From the IMG/VR virus record IMGVR_UViG_3300032269_001670, positions 21,708-85,707 of that record: a DNA stretch of 64,000 nt. One strand, 5' to 3'. The notes beneath the pieces are model-generated. The model saw only the letters and a program-made list of their open reading frames with translations, did not search any database and was not told where the DNA came from. The DNA comes from a virus (lineage: Duplodnaviria > Caudoviricetes). A program made the translations under genes and the position numbers. This document shows, piece by piece, positions 9,163-62,199 of the stretch (the stretch's first letter is position 1; each line of letters begins with the position of its first letter).

Positions 9163-9522
9163 ATGGGCCCAGAACTTGTGTACTTGCTTTCACAGATCCG
9201 CGTTGGCCGAGAAAACGCAGTTACCTACAAAGAGCTTTCCAAGAAAACTATGTGGAACAGCCGGGCTATTCAAATGGCTGTTGAGGAGCTTAGGAATGTC
9301 TGGGAACAGCCGATCTGCTCCGCGTCCGATAGCCCTGCAGGAATTTATATTGCTACCAGTTCAGAGGAGCTGGATACGTGGGCAAACATGCAGCGGGAGC
9401 GCGCCCGGAGCCTTCTTCGCTCCTCATGGGCCATCCGAAAGATTGCCAAGAAGTGGAAGGTTCAGGAAGACCAGGCCAGAAGGGACAATGCAGTACCCGG
9501 AGAGGTAACCCTCGGCCTATAA
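9163..9522 (+). CDS. Winged-helix DNA-binding protein
   Basis: GRENAVTYKEL...RAIQMAVEELR...GIYIATSSEEL; SD AAGGAGG. Confidence 0.75.
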   Translation: MGPELVYLLSQIRVGRENAVTYKELSKKTMWNSRAIQMAVEELRNVWEQPICSASDSPAGIYIATSSEELDTWANMQRERARSLLRSSWAIRKIAKKWKVQEDQARRDNAVPGEVTLGL

Positions 9523-9524
9523 TC

Positions 9525-9533
9525 TGGTATAGT
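9525..9533 (+). promoter_or_regulatory. Extended -10 promoter TGGTATAGT driving the tRNA-like RNA
   Basis: The same 9-mer occurs at 13291; G9539 lies 5 nt downstream. Confidence 0.65.
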
Positions 9534-9538
9534 CTAAC

Positions 9539-9610
9539 GGGGCCGCGTATACGCCAAAGGTCATCATGCCTGAGGGTAACGGCGGGTGAAACTCCCGCCC
9601 GGCTCCACCA
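9539..9610 (+). ncRNA. 72-nt tRNA-like RNA with tmRNA/Ala acceptor-T module and no anticodon arm
   Basis: GGGGCCG/CGGCTCC acceptor stem with G3.U70, A73 and encoded CCA; T-arm GGCGGG-TGAAACT-CCCGCC. Confidence 0.8.
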
Positions 9611-9620
9611 AAGGAGAATT

Positions 9621-9842
9621 ATGCCAACATACGACTATAAGTGCGAAAAGTGCGACATCACCCGGGAGACTGTTCGCAAGATGAGCGACGACTCTAAGGA
9701 GCTCTGCTTGGTATGCAATGGCGAGATGCGCGTTGTGTTTAACGCCCCAAAGATTACTTACAGAGGATCAGGTTGGGCATTCCAAGAAAAGATTCCCCAG
9801 GAAACGCACTTGGTTATTGGATCTGACTCAAAGAAGTCCTGA
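9621..9842 (+). CDS. FmdB-family zinc-ribbon protein
   Basis: MPTYDYKCEKC...CLVC...FNAPKITYRGSGW; SD AAGGAG. Confidence 0.9.
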   Translation: MPTYDYKCEKCDITRETVRKMSDDSKELCLVCNGEMRVVFNAPKITYRGSGWAFQEKIPQETHLVIGSDSKKS

Positions 9843-10170
9843 GCTGACGGGACATATCCCGAATTGCTTTTCCCGGAGTTTCGCCGCGTCCAACAATTGA
9901 CGCAACATCTGGGAGTAAGTCGAGCGGCATAATTTCAGCAACCCAATGTGGTTCCTTGTCGTTGCTGTAATTCCACCAAAAAATCTGCATTGACGGAAGC
10001 TCAACCCTCTTGCCAACCGATTGCTCAAAATCTCGCCATGCGCATTGCATGCAATCGTCGGGATCAACCGGAAGGCCATAAGACTTCAATCCGTCTGGTG
10101 TTTGGATGAGTGCCGATAAGTGGAGACACTCTGTCTTTTCGCTTACCAGTTTTAGCTCTTTTGAATCCAT
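9814..10170 (-). CDS. Hypothetical protein with HicB-like C-terminal segment
   Basis: WVAEI..LPDVASIVGRGETPGKAIRDM resembles the HicB RNase-H-like fold; SD GTAGGAG. Confidence 0.6.
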   Translation of the reverse strand: MDSKELKLVSEKTECLHLSALIQTPDGLKSYGLPVDPDDCMQCAWRDFEQSVGKRVELPSMQIFWWNYSNDKEPHWVAEIMPLDLLPDVASIVGRGETPGKAIRDMSRQLRTSLSQIQ

Positions 10171-10444: not shown

Positions 10445-10473
10445 TTGGCACGTCAAAAGTTTTCGTGTATGAT
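10445..10473 (+). promoter_or_regulatory. Promoter TTGGCA-17-TATGAT, leaderless start at 10480
   Basis: ATG 6 nt after the -10; no SD. Confidence 0.65.
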
Positions 10474-10479
10474 CCCGGC

Positions 10480-11295
10480 ATGGCCAAAAATAAATTCCAA
10501 AAGCAGCAACCAGAGGCGAAGCCTGCCCCCCAGGGATCGCCAATTTCACTATTTTCGATCACACCCATCATTGACGGGAACGTAAATCATGGATACGTGC
10601 ATTCACTTTTAGGGATTCAGCAGGCCTGCATGTCGGTCGGCATCCCATTTTCCTGGTCGTTTGTCATCGGCAACTCGATGCTGGTTGCAGCTCGAAACCG
10701 GTGTGTGGCCCAGTTCATGAGCAGTACAAAGGCGACGCATATGCTGTTCCTTGACGCAGATATTTCCGTGCGTTGGGAAGACGTTATGGTAGCTGTCGTT
10801 GCCGACAAAGATGTTGTTGCCCTTCCCTGCCTTAAACGGGCTATCGATTGGGACCGAAGCGTCGGCATGATGAGAAAACATCCAGAAGTTCCTGGACGCG
10901 CAATTGAATCGGTGATGGGCATGCCTAATTTTATTTTGGACAAAAATGCTCCCGGCCCAAGTAAAGAAGATGAAGAATTTGGGATTATGGAAGCAACGCA
11001 TGCCGGAACCGGAGCGATGATTATTGCGCGCCGTACATTTGAGAAGTATCAGAAAGCTTACCCGGACCGCTGGTACATGGAGGATGTTGCCGGCGTGACG
11101 CATCGGACCGTTGAGTATTTCCGCTATGGGCGCAGAGACAATCATTTCATTGGGGAGGATTACACGTTCTGCGACGACGTACGAGCTATGGGCGGAAAGA
11201 TTCACGTTAAGGTTGACGGGCGATCAACTCATGTTGGGCAAGTAAACCTGCGTTATGATTTGGCTGCGCTTAAAGCGCTTGCATCGGAGGCGTAA
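10480..11295 (+). CDS. GT-A fold glycosyltransferase-like protein
   Basis: ITP...GNS.L..ARN; MLFLDADI (DxD); GEDYTFC. Confidence 0.8.
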   Translation: MAKNKFQKQQPEAKPAPQGSPISLFSITPIIDGNVNHGYVHSLLGIQQACMSVGIPFSWSFVIGNSMLVAARNRCVAQFMSSTKATHMLFLDADISVRWEDVMVAVVADKDVVALPCLKRAIDWDRSVGMMRKHPEVPGRAIESVMGMPNFILDKNAPGPSKEDEEFGIMEATHAGTGAMIIARRTFEKYQKAYPDRWYMEDVAGVTHRTVEYFRYGRRDNHFIGEDYTFCDDVRAMGGKIHVKVDGRSTHVGQVNLRYDLAALKALASEA

Positions 11296-11501
11296 TGGAA
11301 ATTATCATCGCGTTTTCAATTGGTTTATTTTTGGGGATTGGAGTTGGCGGATCGTTAATGTCTGGAAAAATTGCAGACGCCAAGCACGAGGGATGGCAAA
11401 GCGGCATGAACGACTTTGCCCAATTGCTGTCGGTCATGAAGCAGGAACAAGAAAAGATTGACGCCGAAAAGGCCCCGGTATTTGGGAAAAAGGTAAACTG
11501 A
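11295..11501 (+). CDS. Small single-TM protein
   Basis: TAATG and TGATG coupling; hydrophobic N-terminus. Confidence 0.7.
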   Translation: MEIIIAFSIGLFLGIGVGGSLMSGKIADAKHEGWQSGMNDFAQLLSVMKQEQEKIDAEKAPVFGKKVN

Positions 11502-12298
11502 TGGCAGAAAAAAAATCTCCTAAAGTTTTTCTTGTCACGCCAACACTTGATGGAAAAGTGACTGCGGAATACGCGCTGGCAGCAACGCAGCTGCAGTCTG
11601 TGTTGTATTCTCACGGCATTAACTTTCAGCTGCATCTTAACATTGGAAATTCATTGCTCGCTTCGGCAAGAAACAAACTTGCTGACGATTTTTTGTCCAG
11701 CAATGCAGACTATCTTCTGATGGTTGACTCAGACATTGCATACCGAGCTCAAGATGTAGTTGCAGCGTTGCCACACCTCGACGACGCTATTGTTGCCTTC
11801 CCTTGTTCAAAAAAGTTTACAAACTGGGATCGAGTTGCAAAAACTGTGCGCAACAACCCAGACTTTCCTGCGCAGGCAATTTCGGCAATTATGGGTGATG
11901 CAAATTTTCACTTGGGGGAAAGCGATTACCTTCGACCAAACGAGCACGGTTTAGCAAAGGTAAAGTGGATTGGTACGGGCATCATGATGACGTCGCGCAA
12001 AGCTCTGGAAAAGATTATTGCTGCCGAACCAGAGAATAAAACAATGGCCCACAACAAAGTGATTTATGAATTTTTTAGATACGACATGGAGTGGGAGGAA
12101 AAAGACGGCGTGAAGTACAAGGGGTATTCCGGAGAGGATGTTTCGTTCTGCGTGATGGCCAGAAATGCCGGGGTAGAGGTCTACGCCAAGCTCGATGCGC
12201 TTACAACGCACTCAGGATTCATGACGTATCGATTTGACGCAACAGCAGTGGCTAAAATCAAAAAGATTCCCGATGACATCAAGAGGCTAGGGACGTAA
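11501..12298 (+). CDS. GT-A fold glycosyltransferase-like protein, paralog of 10480..11295
   Basis: VTP...GNSLLASARN; LLMVDSDI; GEDVSFC. Confidence 0.8.
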   Translation: MAEKKSPKVFLVTPTLDGKVTAEYALAATQLQSVLYSHGINFQLHLNIGNSLLASARNKLADDFLSSNADYLLMVDSDIAYRAQDVVAALPHLDDAIVAFPCSKKFTNWDRVAKTVRNNPDFPAQAISAIMGDANFHLGESDYLRPNEHGLAKVKWIGTGIMMTSRKALEKIIAAEPENKTMAHNKVIYEFFRYDMEWEEKDGVKYKGYSGEDVSFCVMARNAGVEVYAKLDALTTHSGFMTYRFDATAVAKIKKIPDDIKRLGT

Positions 12299-13305: not shown

Positions 13306-13527
13306 ATGGAAATGAATATTCCGCCAAGTCCGCGAGCTGCGGCAATCTGGTACCTTTGGTCTTCGTCCTTTGCGGTCTCCATTGTGTATGCTCCACGCTG
13401 GCCAGATGATGCCGTGCCATATGCGGTGCAGTTCCCAAAGAACTACGATACCGGCGATTTTGTCCGCCTGGACGAACGCGAGGCCCAATGGTTGATTGAC
13501 CAGAAAGTGAAGGTTCAACATGACTAA
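13306..13527 (+). CDS. Hypothetical protein
   Basis: Start re-assigned to ATG 13306; coupled to the GT2 gene. Confidence 0.6.
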   Translation: MEMNIPPSPRAAAIWYLWSSSFAVSIVYAPRWPDDAVPYAVQFPKNYDTGDFVRLDEREAQWLIDQKVKVQHD

Positions 13528-14191
13528 AAGGAATCTGCTTATCGTGCCTACAAGAAACCGACCGGAGAAGGCCTTGGAGCTCCTGCAAGAATTCAACAAC
13601 ACAGCGGAAGACTCCGACATTATTTTTGGTCTTGACGATGACGATACCAGTAACTACGCACCTGAGGTTCGAGAGAAAGCAGTAATCAATCCCCGGTTGC
13701 GAATGTGCGGCACGCTCAACTTGATCGCTAACCAATATGCCAATAAGTACGAGTTCCTTTCGTTTATGGGCGACGACCATCGACCGCGCACCAATGGCTG
13801 GGATAACCGGCTGATGCTTGGCATTGGATCAAATCCTGGTGTTGCTTGGGGCAACGATCTCCTGCAGGGCGAGCGCCTCCCAACGGCGGTGCTGCTCTCG
13901 TCGTCAATTGTCCGCGCAATCGGCTATATGGCTCCGCCCGAGCTTGTACACATGTACATGGACAATTTCTGGCTGACGATTGGCAAAGGGCTCGGCAACG
14001 CTTTTTACGACGGAGATTGCATCATTGAACACATGCATTTTATTAACGGGAAAGCAGAGAGGGATGCCGGATACATTGAAGTAAATGCTCCCGAGGTGTT
14101 CATGAAAGATTCAGAGGCATATGGAAGGTATTTGACGGAGAGGCTCTTCTCCGATCTCGGAAAGATTCAGAACGTCGACCTCGAAGGATGA
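13520..14191 (+). CDS. Glycosyltransferase family 2-like protein
   Basis: LIVPTRNRP, FGLDDDD, FMGDDHRP. Confidence 0.85.
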   Translation: MTKRNLLIVPTRNRPEKALELLQEFNNTAEDSDIIFGLDDDDTSNYAPEVREKAVINPRLRMCGTLNLIANQYANKYEFLSFMGDDHRPRTNGWDNRLMLGIGSNPGVAWGNDLLQGERLPTAVLLSSSIVRAIGYMAPPELVHMYMDNFWLTIGKGLGNAFYDGDCIIEHMHFINGKAERDAGYIEVNAPEVFMKDSEAYGRYLTERLFSDLGKIQNVDLEG

Positions 14192-60024: not shown

Positions 60025-62199
60025 ATGGCGGAAAACCGCTCACTCTTTGGCCGCATCCTTGGCGGCGTTGGCATTTCCTTTGGCGGCTCAGAGAAGGCGC
60101 TTAGTACGGTGCCGGACTATGACTCGTCTCCATATGCCCGTGGCGTTGCCGGTGTTGCACACGCCCAAAAACGCAGCACCCAACAGCTCCGACGATGGTC
60201 GCGCACCAATCCATGGATTCGTGCTGCCATTAACCTTCGCCGCACTCAAGTTAGCCGCGCAAAGTGGGATATTGTTTCCGTTGACTCAGACAGCCCGGTT
60301 AATGCAGCAAAAGTTGATCAGATCAAAAAGCTTCTGCGCATGCCAAATGATCGCATGGATTCATGGCGCTCACTCATGGAGCCGATCATCGAGGACATTC
60401 TTGTCCTTGATCAAGGCGTCATTGAGGTTGAGACAACCAAGGGCGGACGCATTGGCCTGAAGAGCAACCCAGTTGCTGGCCTGTATGCCAAGGATGGCGC
60501 AAAGATTGTGTTTGACTCGGCCTGGGATGGCAGCGACCCGAAGAAGCCACGCTATTACGAAATGGCAGAGGATGGCCGAGAGGTCGAGGCATACCTGAAC
60601 CATGAGTTGATTGTTATTATTTCTAACCCGGTGACGTACACCCCGCTTGGGCTTTCGCCGCTGGAGGTTCTCGCCGACACTATTGAGTCCGATCTTGCCG
60701 CAGCTGCCTACAACGCAAAGGCCGTGATGGCTGCCGCGCCTCCTGGGGTTCTGCACCTTGGAGAGGGCGTTCGTCCGGATCAAGTTGATGCATTCCGTGC
60801 CTACTGGGACGCCGAGATTGCCGGTCGCAGCCAGATTGCCATTACGGGCGGCGGTAAGGGGATTCAGTGGATGCCACTTGCTTCGTCAAACCGCGACATG
60901 CAGTTCATGGAATGGCAAGTCTATCTTGCCCGAAAGATCTGCGCTGTCTTTGGCGTGCAGCCACAGGACATTGGCATCGGCTTTGACGTCAACCGAGCTT
61001 CGGCAGACGTTGGCGCGGCCTTTACCCAGGATGTCGGCATCGCTCCGTTGCTTGACCTTATTGCCGAGTACATGACGCGCGAGATTGTCTGGCGCTATGA
61101 CGAGAATCTACGTTTTGCCTACACCGAAATGGGCAAGCAAAGCCAGGCTGAGATGTCTGCATATTACAAGCAGGCATTAGCCGGCCTTCCATGGCTTCGC
61201 CTTAATGACGCCCTCCGAGAGCGTGGACAGGATGGCGTTGGCGAGCAGGGTGAGCAGATTTGGCTACCAAGTCCTCAGGGCTACATGCCAATGGATGTCT
61301 ATATGAAGTATCTGGACAATCTTGTATCTGGCGGAGCTCAGCCGTCACCTGATGGCAATACCCCTCCAACAGCAAACAATCCGCAGGGCGTTCCCTCACC
61401 AGACCAGGGTCAGAACATGGTTCCGGACAACACGCCGTCCAACAGCCCGCAGTCGCAGACGTCAAAGGCTGATGGCGACCCAATCATTGTTTGCGATATT
61501 GATGGCACGCTGACCGTTCATGACGGAAGCAACGAGCCTAACGAGGCTGTGGTTGGGTATCTGCAGCGGCAGGCAGACAATCATCGTATCTTTATCGTCA
61601 GCGCACGATCTTCCAAGCGCCTGGATGAGACACGCCAGTGGCTTGAGGACAATGACGTTCCGCACGATGCCATCTATCTCTCTGACTTCCCGACTGGAGC
61701 TGGCCTGCAGTTCAAGAAGTACAAGATCTCCAAGATTCTCAAGGAAAGCGGCAATGTGACCGAGGCAATCGAAAACGATGCTGAGGTGCGCGCAGCCTAC
61801 AAGGCAGCCGGCGTTCAAAACGTTCACGGTCCAGATGAGGTTGCCAGCAAGTTTGCTGCAGCTGATTACTCTGGGATCAATCTGAACGTTCCGTCCGCAG
61901 TTCAAGCTGAGGCGAAGCGTGGTTTGAAGTGGCGCGAGGAGTTTGGTCGCGGTGGCATTGGGCCTGGTCAGACCACGGCTCATATGCTTATCGGCAACAA
62001 GATGACCATTGCTCGCGTACGCAAGATGCGCGCCTTCCTGGCGCGACATGAAGTTGATAAGCAGGGCGAGGGATTCAATCCTGGAGAGAAGGGCTACCCT
62101 TCTGCCGGTCGTATTGCCTGGGCGCTATGGGGCGGCAACCCTGGCCAGTCGTGGGCTAACAAAGTAATGCGACAGGTCGAAGCCCGCGAAAAGCGCTAA
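60025..62199 (+). CDS. Portal protein fused to a HAD phosphatase-like domain and an unnamed C-terminal domain
   Basis: Portal motifs (GLSPLE, PPGVL, ICAVFGVQP); VCDIDGTL...VSAR...FKK...IEND HAD motifs. Confidence 0.9.
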   Translation: MAENRSLFGRILGGVGISFGGSEKALSTVPDYDSSPYARGVAGVAHAQKRSTQQLRRWSRTNPWIRAAINLRRTQVSRAKWDIVSVDSDSPVNAAKVDQIKKLLRMPNDRMDSWRSLMEPIIEDILVLDQGVIEVETTKGGRIGLKSNPVAGLYAKDGAKIVFDSAWDGSDPKKPRYYEMAEDGREVEAYLNHELIVIISNPVTYTPLGLSPLEVLADTIESDLAAAAYNAKAVMAAAPPGVLHLGEGVRPDQVDAFRAYWDAEIAGRSQIAITGGGKGIQWMPLASSNRDMQFMEWQVYLARKICAVFGVQPQDIGIGFDVNRASADVGAAFTQDVGIAPLLDLIAEYMTREIVWRYDENLRFAYTEMGKQSQAEMSAYYKQALAGLPWLRLNDALRERGQDGVGEQGEQIWLPSPQGYMPMDVYMKYLDNLVSGGAQPSPDGNTPPTANNPQGVPSPDQGQNMVPDNTPSNSPQSQTSKADGDPIIVCDIDGTLTVHDGSNEPNEAVVGYLQRQADNHRIFIVSARSSKRLDETRQWLEDNDVPHDAIYLSDFPTGAGLQFKKYKISKILKESGNVTEAIENDAEVRAAYKAAGVQNVHGPDEVASKFAAADYSGINLNVPSAVQAEAKRGLKWREEFGRGGIGPGQTTAHMLIGNKMTIARVRKMRAFLARHEVDKQGEGFNPGEKGYPSAGRIAWALWGGNPGQSWANKVMRQVEAREKR

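Follow-up and report, generated by a model that had tools for sequence, protein, structure and literature searches.

A 72-nt phage RNA that resembles a tmRNA reduced to its tRNA-like domain, and the phage RNA family to which it appears to belong

A phage genome in the IMG/VR collection carries, between two protein-coding genes, a 72-nt gene (9539-9610, + strand) for a tRNA-like RNA that resembles the tRNA-like domain (TLD) of tmRNA standing alone. Direct reading of the sequence, its fold, its conservation and its covariation leave little doubt that this is a real structured RNA gene and one member of a much larger family. Judged from sequence, that family appears to be a distinct lineage, and it is matched by no Rfam family. 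Unless a contig or accession is named, coordinates refer to the window, that is, the whole stretch of 64,000 nt that was analyzed, which corresponds to bases 21708-85707 of a phage genome. That genome measures 85.7 kb, has direct terminal repeats and is rated complete. The terminase, portal and tail genes of this phage have only distant kin among cultured phages, and even the closest of these show less than 30% terminase identity. A BLAST search of 50,697 deposited phage records found no similar DNA, and by BLAST the signature described below is absent from them as well. The portal protein (60025-62199, +; 724 aa) has an extra C-terminal region, of which residues ~473-600 match polynucleotide kinase/phosphatase-type and phosphoheptose isomerase PHROGs.

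The element occupies a 98-nt gap between a gene of unknown function (phrog_2113; 9163-9522) and a 73-aa FmdB-type zinc-ribbon gene (9621-9842, +; Pfam Zn_ribbon_8, 1.6e-10). The preliminary description had placed its start at 9525, which is the first base of an extended -10 element, TGGTATAGT (9525-9533, +), with 5 nt separating it from G1, at which the acceptor stem begins. The motif TGnTATAGT is kept 5-6 nt ahead of G1 in all relatives of the window's subgroup and the adjoining bases vary; this constant spacing fits a start of transcription at the first acceptor-stem base. A simple sigma-70 scan made no promoter call at this site, since there is no -35 element. On the strength of the conserved motif, TGGTATAGT is presumably used as a promoter, with transcription probably beginning at G1.

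The CCA end of the RNA is followed immediately by a Shine-Dalgarno (SD) sequence, AAGGAGA (9611-9617, +), and then by the ATG at 9621, and these are the true start of the FmdB gene. The FmdB frame (9378-9842, +) happens to be open upstream across the entire RNA element in the window phage; ORF finders may over-extend the gene to a GTG at 9378, and one relative has an in-frame TGA there. Beyond the gene lies a terminator-like hairpin with a T-rich tail (9848-9871, +), the likely end of the transcription unit. Two paralogues of unknown function (phrog_1574; 10465-11295 and 11501-12298, +) are found closely downstream, and after both of them a glycosyltransferase-like gene (13520-14191). The tie to FmdB that had been proposed from the sequence is positional only and otherwise not supported. 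The gene is a probably co-transcribed neighbour with its SD right after the CCA, but it is not a conserved partner, because downstream genes differ between lineages: elsewhere the element precedes unrelated genes, tRNA genes or a separate promoter. It is also absent upstream of distant FmdB homologues (51 loci).

The RNA, all of it on the + strand, begins with the 5' strand of the acceptor stem, GGGGCCG (9539-9545, with G3 at 9541), which pairs with CGGCUCC (9600-9606, with the U of G3.U at 9604). The seven pairs are, in order, G-C, G-C, G.U, G-C, C-G, C-G and G-C. The 8-nt joining strand that follows, J1 (CGUAUACG; 9546-9553), is the analogue of a D-loop; its A11 (9549) is invariant, and its position 12 (9550) is a candidate partner of T-loop position 3. 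Next comes a central irregular hairpin (9554-9575; positions 16-22 with 31-37) that is not an anticodon arm. Its loop, UCAUCAUG, is invariant and its terminal G-C pairs are constant, and its inner 3x3 loop is Watson-Crick paired in one relative (L324). A 5-nt linker, J2 (GUAAC; 9576-9580), whose final A-C is invariant across the family, leads into the T arm (9581-9599), with a 6-bp stem (9581-9586 with 9594-9599) and a 7-nt loop, UGAAACU (9587-9593). The discriminator A and encoded CCA (9607-9610) complete the RNA and are read directly from the sequence. There is no D arm and no anticodon arm: 35 nt separate the acceptor and T arms, whose joint helix has 13 bp (7+6). The minimum-free-energy (MFE) fold is exactly this structure (-32.9 kcal/mol, z -2.15). 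Reading and folding thus confirm the sequence and structure of the preliminary description (7-bp acceptor stem, G3.U70, A73, CCA and 6-bp T stem), and its statement that canonical D and anticodon arms and a tag ORF are missing is borne out as well, with only one irregular hairpin lying between the ends.

An ordinary tRNA or tmRNA was rejected as an explanation of the element. ARAGORN at default settings called no tRNA or tmRNA anywhere in the window, and no tag; at forced low thresholds it produced only pseudo-cloverleaves with mismatched stems. At gathering scores Rfam returned nothing for the 72-nt RNA; relaxing the threshold to E 10 yielded only noise, and even then the RNA was unmatched by the tmRNA (RF00023), mt-tmRNA and tRNA models. 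When run over the genome of the window phage, RF00023 found no match, and the tRNA model RF00005 recovered the two genuine tRNAs, Ile-UAU and Asn-GUU, but missed the 72-nt RNA. The model check proposed at the outset therefore places the RNA with neither class. Because the real tRNAs of the phage are canonical, with GG D-loops, UUCGAGU T loops and 5-bp T stems, the odd features are specific to the 72-nt RNA and are not a habit of this phage. A protein-coding element was also rejected: the variable positions lack codon periodicity, and one relative (L018/L202) has a TGA in the only open frame.

In 14 related contigs of IMG/VR the element occupies the corresponding position. Among the eight distinct versions of the region its mean pairwise identity is 93%, compared to 55% and 61% for the third codon positions of the two flanking genes and 94-95% for their second codon positions. 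By this measure, the element appears to be under purifying selection as strong as that on second codon positions. The T-stem pairs of the subgroup show compensatory changes, and the subgroup pair counts agree with those of the family alignment. These relatives were found through their neighbouring genes, and the discriminator A and CCA are invariant among them; in the wider family the ACCA end was prescribed by the search pattern.

A degenerate scan of IMG/VR, based on the T loop and 3' end, returned 79 contigs, of which 65 are unrelated to the window phage group; all but two or three of these fold alike. The same scan of metagenome contigs yielded about 20 further variants, and members of the family range from 52 to 143 nt. 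In the search pattern, the prescribed parts were the T loop, the two inner pairs of the T stem, a single C and the final seven bases. The covarying pairs are not among them, and they were read from an alignment of 34 distinct sequences fitted to a covariance model. In that alignment 99.6% of cells are standard pairs, versus 50-63% when the partners are slid. Both partners have changed in seven of the pairs. For each of acceptor pairs 4-6 and T-stem pairs 2-4, between two and four pair types occur, and never a mismatch. A covariance model built from the window subgroup alone finds about 45 other lineages at full length (E 1e-12 to 1e-6), with scores of 34-52 bits as compared to 104.8 bits for the window RNA. 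The covariation in related phages that had been suggested as a check is thus present both in the subgroup, as compensatory changes, and across the wider family.

The single-stranded parts of the RNA are also conserved. The T loop is U-G-N-A-A-C-U in all members of the family, J1 follows the consensus N-G-Y-A-G-N-N-G with A11 invariant, and the linker always ends in A-C. The elbow bases are non-canonical across the family, with A in place of G18 and G in place of U55. J1 position 12 and T-loop position 3 form G-C in 22 sequences, U-A in 3 and A-U in 2, with 2 other combinations, one of which is an alignment slip; in the window subgroup the pair is Watson-Crick in 6 of 9. These counts are suggestive of two bases that behave like G19-C56 of tRNA. 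The central arm, on the other hand, differs in both length and sequence among family members. The 52-nt member in contig L333 (3046-3097, +) consists of acceptor stem, J1, a short linker, T arm and ACCA, with the central hairpin missing altogether. Because this RNA has no central hairpin, the conserved core of the family is the acceptor/T helix together with J1 and the linker. Of natural alanine-type tRNA mimics with an elbow, the L333 RNA may be one of the smallest.

Two other lineages show unusual arrangements. A 97-nt lineage (L228, 700-796, -; L235, 2950-3046, +) shares its acceptor and T stems with the window RNA and has a pyrimidine-rich central loop with UCACCUC/CCUCC, similar to the anti-Shine-Dalgarno end of 16S rRNA; this element lies directly upstream of a terminase-like gene. 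In 29 contigs of one high-GC lineage, the tRNA-like element is in frame within an open frame of 375-390 aa. Examples are the 81-nt element at L219:4298-4378 (-), inside the ORF at L219:3909-5081 (-), and the 78-nt element at L263:6209-6286 (-), inside the ORF at L263:5823-6947 (-); both lengths are divisible by three. The element falls in a Pro/Ala-rich linker, with an N-terminal domain before it and a C-terminal part with a membrane-like segment after it, and may be a dual-use sequence or a signal that splits the mRNA. Pfam searches with the neighbour genes of other lineages gave nothing informative.

The acceptor end carries the determinants of alanine identity. G3.U70 is the major determinant for alanyl-tRNA synthetase (AlaRS), with A73 and G2-C71 as minor ones, and minihelices are substrates of the enzyme. 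G3.U is found in 34/34 aligned sequences and in every family member, though A3 could also pair, and a scan that allowed any non-T base at position 70 found no matches, versus about 63 with T. The adjoining pairs 4-6 vary freely and none is unpaired. A wobble that is kept amid varying neighbours matches the prediction of selection for recognition by AlaRS, and on this sequence evidence the RNA is probably charged with alanine.

A kinship with tmRNA emerged from those metagenome scan matches that lacked a nearby 5' strand. Five of these proved to be the 3' ends of full-length tmRNAs by Rfam (194, 166, 116, 72 and 60 bits), which terminate in a UGCAACU loop, a 6-bp T stem and a ..UCCACCA end, and one permuted tmRNA (RF04321) in metagenome contigs has the same T arm. 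The full-length and permuted RNAs are located at L294:7962-8317 (-), L364:134-488 (-), L307:11993-12393 (-), L384:81-467 (-), L368:911-1311 (-) and L296:2102-2325 (+). In two of them ARAGORN finds tags, ANDNYALAA and ANNDYALAA. Their D-loops start with AGUUAG, UGUAG or CGUAG and go on to the usual UUCGAC. Several of these tmRNAs adjoin arrays of 9-13 tRNA genes, which suggests that they are of phage origin, and the T-arm signature is absent from 406 sampled bacterial genomes (5 + 401, of one phylum). The tmRNAs with UGCAACU and a 6-bp T stem may represent a tmRNA lineage specific to phages. The UGCAACU T loop is also present in two or more ordinary tRNAs of a 13-gene array (L291:1112-1190, -, and neighbouring tRNA genes), so the G55 variant is not confined to tmRNA-type RNAs. 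In the simplest reading, the mini RNAs would be tag-less, TLD-only derivatives of the UGCAACU tmRNA lineage. The initial proposal of an alanine-type mimic of the tmRNA TLD, lacking both anticodon and tag, is thereby supported, in that G3.U is invariant and the T-arm signature recurs in tmRNAs.

A precedent for such an RNA exists. Mycobacteriophage DS6A is listed with a "TLD only" tmRNA (Hudson et al., PMC4131195; tmRNA Website tmID 11587), and the passage of that paper which cites Mao et al. 2009 states that a DS6A-like TLD molecule strongly inhibits tmRNA, perhaps by SmpB titration (PMC4131195). We tentatively favour a similar reading of the window RNA, as a tag-less mini-tmRNA that consists of the tRNA-like domain only, is charged with alanine and competes with host tmRNA, and we place this reading just short of probable. 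Transcription would proceed from the extended -10, starting at or next to G1 and running on into the FmdB gene. The transcript would fold into a coaxial 7+6-bp acceptor/T helix with an elbow formed from the 8-nt J1 and the T loop, the short central hairpin taking the place of tmRNA helix 2, and host RNases would free the encoded CCA end. Host AlaRS would then charge the RNA through G3.U70, A73, G1-C72, G2-C71 and G4-C69. The charged RNA would compete with host tmRNA for SmpB, EF-Tu and stalled ribosomes, as proposed for the TLD-only RNA of DS6A, either blocking the tagging of stalled products during infection or substituting a tag-less rescue. An action on trans-translation is possible rather than probable.

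Several features weigh against this mechanism. SmpB binding is uncertain, because the tmRNA D-loop motif GG..UUCGAC is missing. The 6-bp T stem gives a 13-bp helix, and release of a free 3' end would require cleavage, because the SD follows the CCA directly and there is no terminator. SmpB, AlaRS, an RF-1/ArfB domain and Pth were all searched for in the window phage, and none was found to be encoded. The lack of any match to the Rfam tmRNA, mt-tmRNA and tRNA models, the weakness of the match to DS6A and the fact that the search pattern set part of the family signature also count against it.

A broader version of the mini-tmRNA reading can be formulated for the whole family. A tmRNA-type lineage belonging to the phages themselves, with its G55 T loop and 13-bp helix, would have been shrunk repeatedly to alanine-charged half tRNAs of 52-143 nt, which together with host SmpB would end stalled translation without a tag and so replace host tagging. 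This version is rather unlikely as it stands. The variable central arm may serve to aim the RNA at particular ribosome-mRNA complexes: the window loop UCAUCAUG is complementary to AUG-AUG, and the loop of another lineage is CCUCC-rich and anti-Shine-Dalgarno-like. The gene that contains the element in frame in one lineage is of a lysis type. A 9-mer of the central loop, GGTCATCAT, has four more copies on the minus strand of the phage's own genome (7720-8544, outside the window), compared to 0.33 expected. They lie in TCATCA-rich low-complexity stretches of an early gene array, in the same sense as the loop, and the repeats could represent a shared protein-binding motif.

The principal alternative is that the element acts in cis, as a 5' leader or processing signal of the "tRNA punctuation" kind. 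Its fold would be recognized by RNase P and 3'-end tRNA nucleases or would protect the 5' end, thereby setting the stability or translation of the following gene, and the free RNA would be a by-product. This arrangement agrees with the -10-like hexamer that about half of the lineages have 3-7 nt ahead of G1, with the SD and start codon that follow within 5-25 nt in most, and with the one lineage in which 29/29 copies lie within a continuous reading frame, between two domains. An encoded CCA and G1-C72 also match the preference of bacterial RNase P, and the C4 RNA of phages P1/P7 and the CI RNA of P4 are precedents: small RNAs embedded in an operon leader and cut from it, with tRNA-like ends that RNase P sees. 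However, the downstream genes are unrelated among lineages, a tRNA gene or a separate promoter comes after some copies, and compact phage genomes place an SD close after any intergenic element. Neither RNase P nor a protective 5' hairpin requires an invariant G3.U or discriminator A, and the unpaired bases of J1, J2 and the T loop that never vary point to a partner acting in trans. A cis-acting role is thus unlikely, though it deserves to be kept in mind.

The C4 and CI RNAs also pair antisense with downstream sites; for the window RNA, in contrast, Rfam gave no match to C4, and a search for an antisense partner or complementary target found none. The complement of the loop 9-mer is confined to the element. 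Outside it, the best duplex (-36.7 kcal/mol) is in a coding region and rests on an 8-mer expected by chance. A scan of the genome collection with the 3' 17-mer gave only chance matches inside high-GC coding sequence.

The RNA might instead work off the ribosome, either as an alanine donor for a tRNA-dependent transferase or as bait for a defence enzyme that attacks the acceptor end, such as CCA-modifying or acceptor-cleaving toxins. The conserved part is indeed confined to the acceptor/T half and the elbow, with a dispensable central arm, and the elbow bases are non-canonical (A for G18, G for U55). The non-proteinogenic tRNA-Gly species used in Staphylococcus cell-wall synthesis likewise lack G18, G19, U55 and C56 (PMC4574755). 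Against such a role, full-length tmRNAs with tag frames, which necessarily work on ribosomes, share this elbow variant and the 6-bp T stem; no transferase or defence gene is consistently nearby; and bait for an enzyme of the CCA end would not require G3.U. We regard an off-ribosome function as improbable. The suggestion in the preliminary description that the RNA might decoy anticodon nucleases is unlikely too, since the family has no anticodon-like loop and its 52-nt member has no central arm at all.

Finally, a decayed tRNA-Ala or tmRNA fragment, or a host-derived attP core without RNA function, is extremely improbable even though the ends resemble those of tRNA-Ala and tmRNA, given purifying selection at the level of second codon positions, compensatory changes in both helices over dozens of lineages, direct terminal repeats with no integrase found in the window phage, and a T loop and 6-bp T stem not seen in any of the bacterial genomes sampled. 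The attP remnant that the preliminary description had named as its refutation is accordingly ruled out, as both acceptor strands covary, the T loop is non-canonical and an integrase is absent; a pseudogene is excluded on the same grounds.

TLD-only tmRNA has hitherto been reported as a curiosity, from the phage DS6A alone and from a few organelles. What emerges here is a large and diverse phage family built on the same idea, represented in more than 70 viral contigs and many metagenomes and reduced to as little as 52 nt, which keeps a strict alanine identity and yet is missed by ARAGORN and Rfam. Should its members prove to be charged and to bind SmpB, then phages would commonly manipulate ribosome rescue. 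As a resource, the family would supply natural minimal substrates for AlaRS, EF-Tu and SmpB, and it offers a ready test of a tRNA-like domain acting alone. It is also a reason to build an Rfam model, because such genes are now read as empty intergenic DNA. The interest of the finding thus rests more on the family that it revealed than on the single copy in the window.

The relationship of the window RNA to known systems can be summarized from its parts. With tRNA-Ala and alanine minihelices it shares G1-C72, G2-C71, G3.U70, G4-C69, A73 and CCA on a coaxial helix, but it lacks a D stem and an anticodon arm, and its helix has 13 bp rather than 12. The tRNA cloverleaf of RF00005, with a D arm, a 5-bp anticodon stem and a 7-nt U33 loop, is not found in it. 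Of the features of tmRNA (RF00023), the 7-bp acceptor stem with G3.U70, the discriminator A and the CCA are all present. The T loop keeps U54, A57, A58 and the closing G-C, and differs in G55 and in the 6-bp stem. The tmRNA D-loop GG..UUCGAC leading into helix 2 is missing, as J1 is just 8 nt and has only the NGUAG-type start and an A-C-like end in common with tmRNA D-loops. The mRNA-like domain, with its resume codon, tag frame and pseudoknots, is absent. The closest likeness is to the UGCAACU tmRNAs, which have in common with the window RNA family the 6-bp T stem, the A-C before it, a G3.U acceptor stem with ACCA and the NGUAG start of the D-loop. With their pseudoknots and tag frames these tmRNAs reach 355-401 nt, whereas the window RNA has 35 nt where these parts lie.

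Reduced tmRNAs without a coding sequence (CDS) occur in jakobid mitochondria and in some plastids, those of the Mallomonadaceae (Nawrocki et al., PMC11915505). They are likewise cut down to a tRNA-like domain of about 65 nt, but they are organellar and paired with imported SmpB, and no relevant Rfam model matches the window RNA at E 10. The RNA of DS6A is the nearer parallel. Its gene is unannotated and was located in an intergenic gap at JN698994 28478-28556; it is a weak match to the subgroup model (17.1 bits, E 0.12), and the sole match in the DS6A genome. Its acceptor stem is identical to that of the window RNA (GGGGCCG/CGGCUCC, with G3.U), and both have a discriminator A. Unlike the window RNA, with its 8-nt J1, UGAAACU loop, 6-bp T stem and encoded CCA, the DS6A RNA has a canonical tmRNA D-loop (GG..UCGAC) and a canonical T loop (UUCGAUU), its T stem has 5 bp, and its gene does not encode the CCA. 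A phage-encoded tmRNA TLD with no coding domain attached, the defining trait of the DS6A type, is found in the window RNA. By these comparisons, the window RNA appears to be the same kind of molecule as the DS6A RNA, from a different and far more widespread lineage in which the D-loop has been reduced further.
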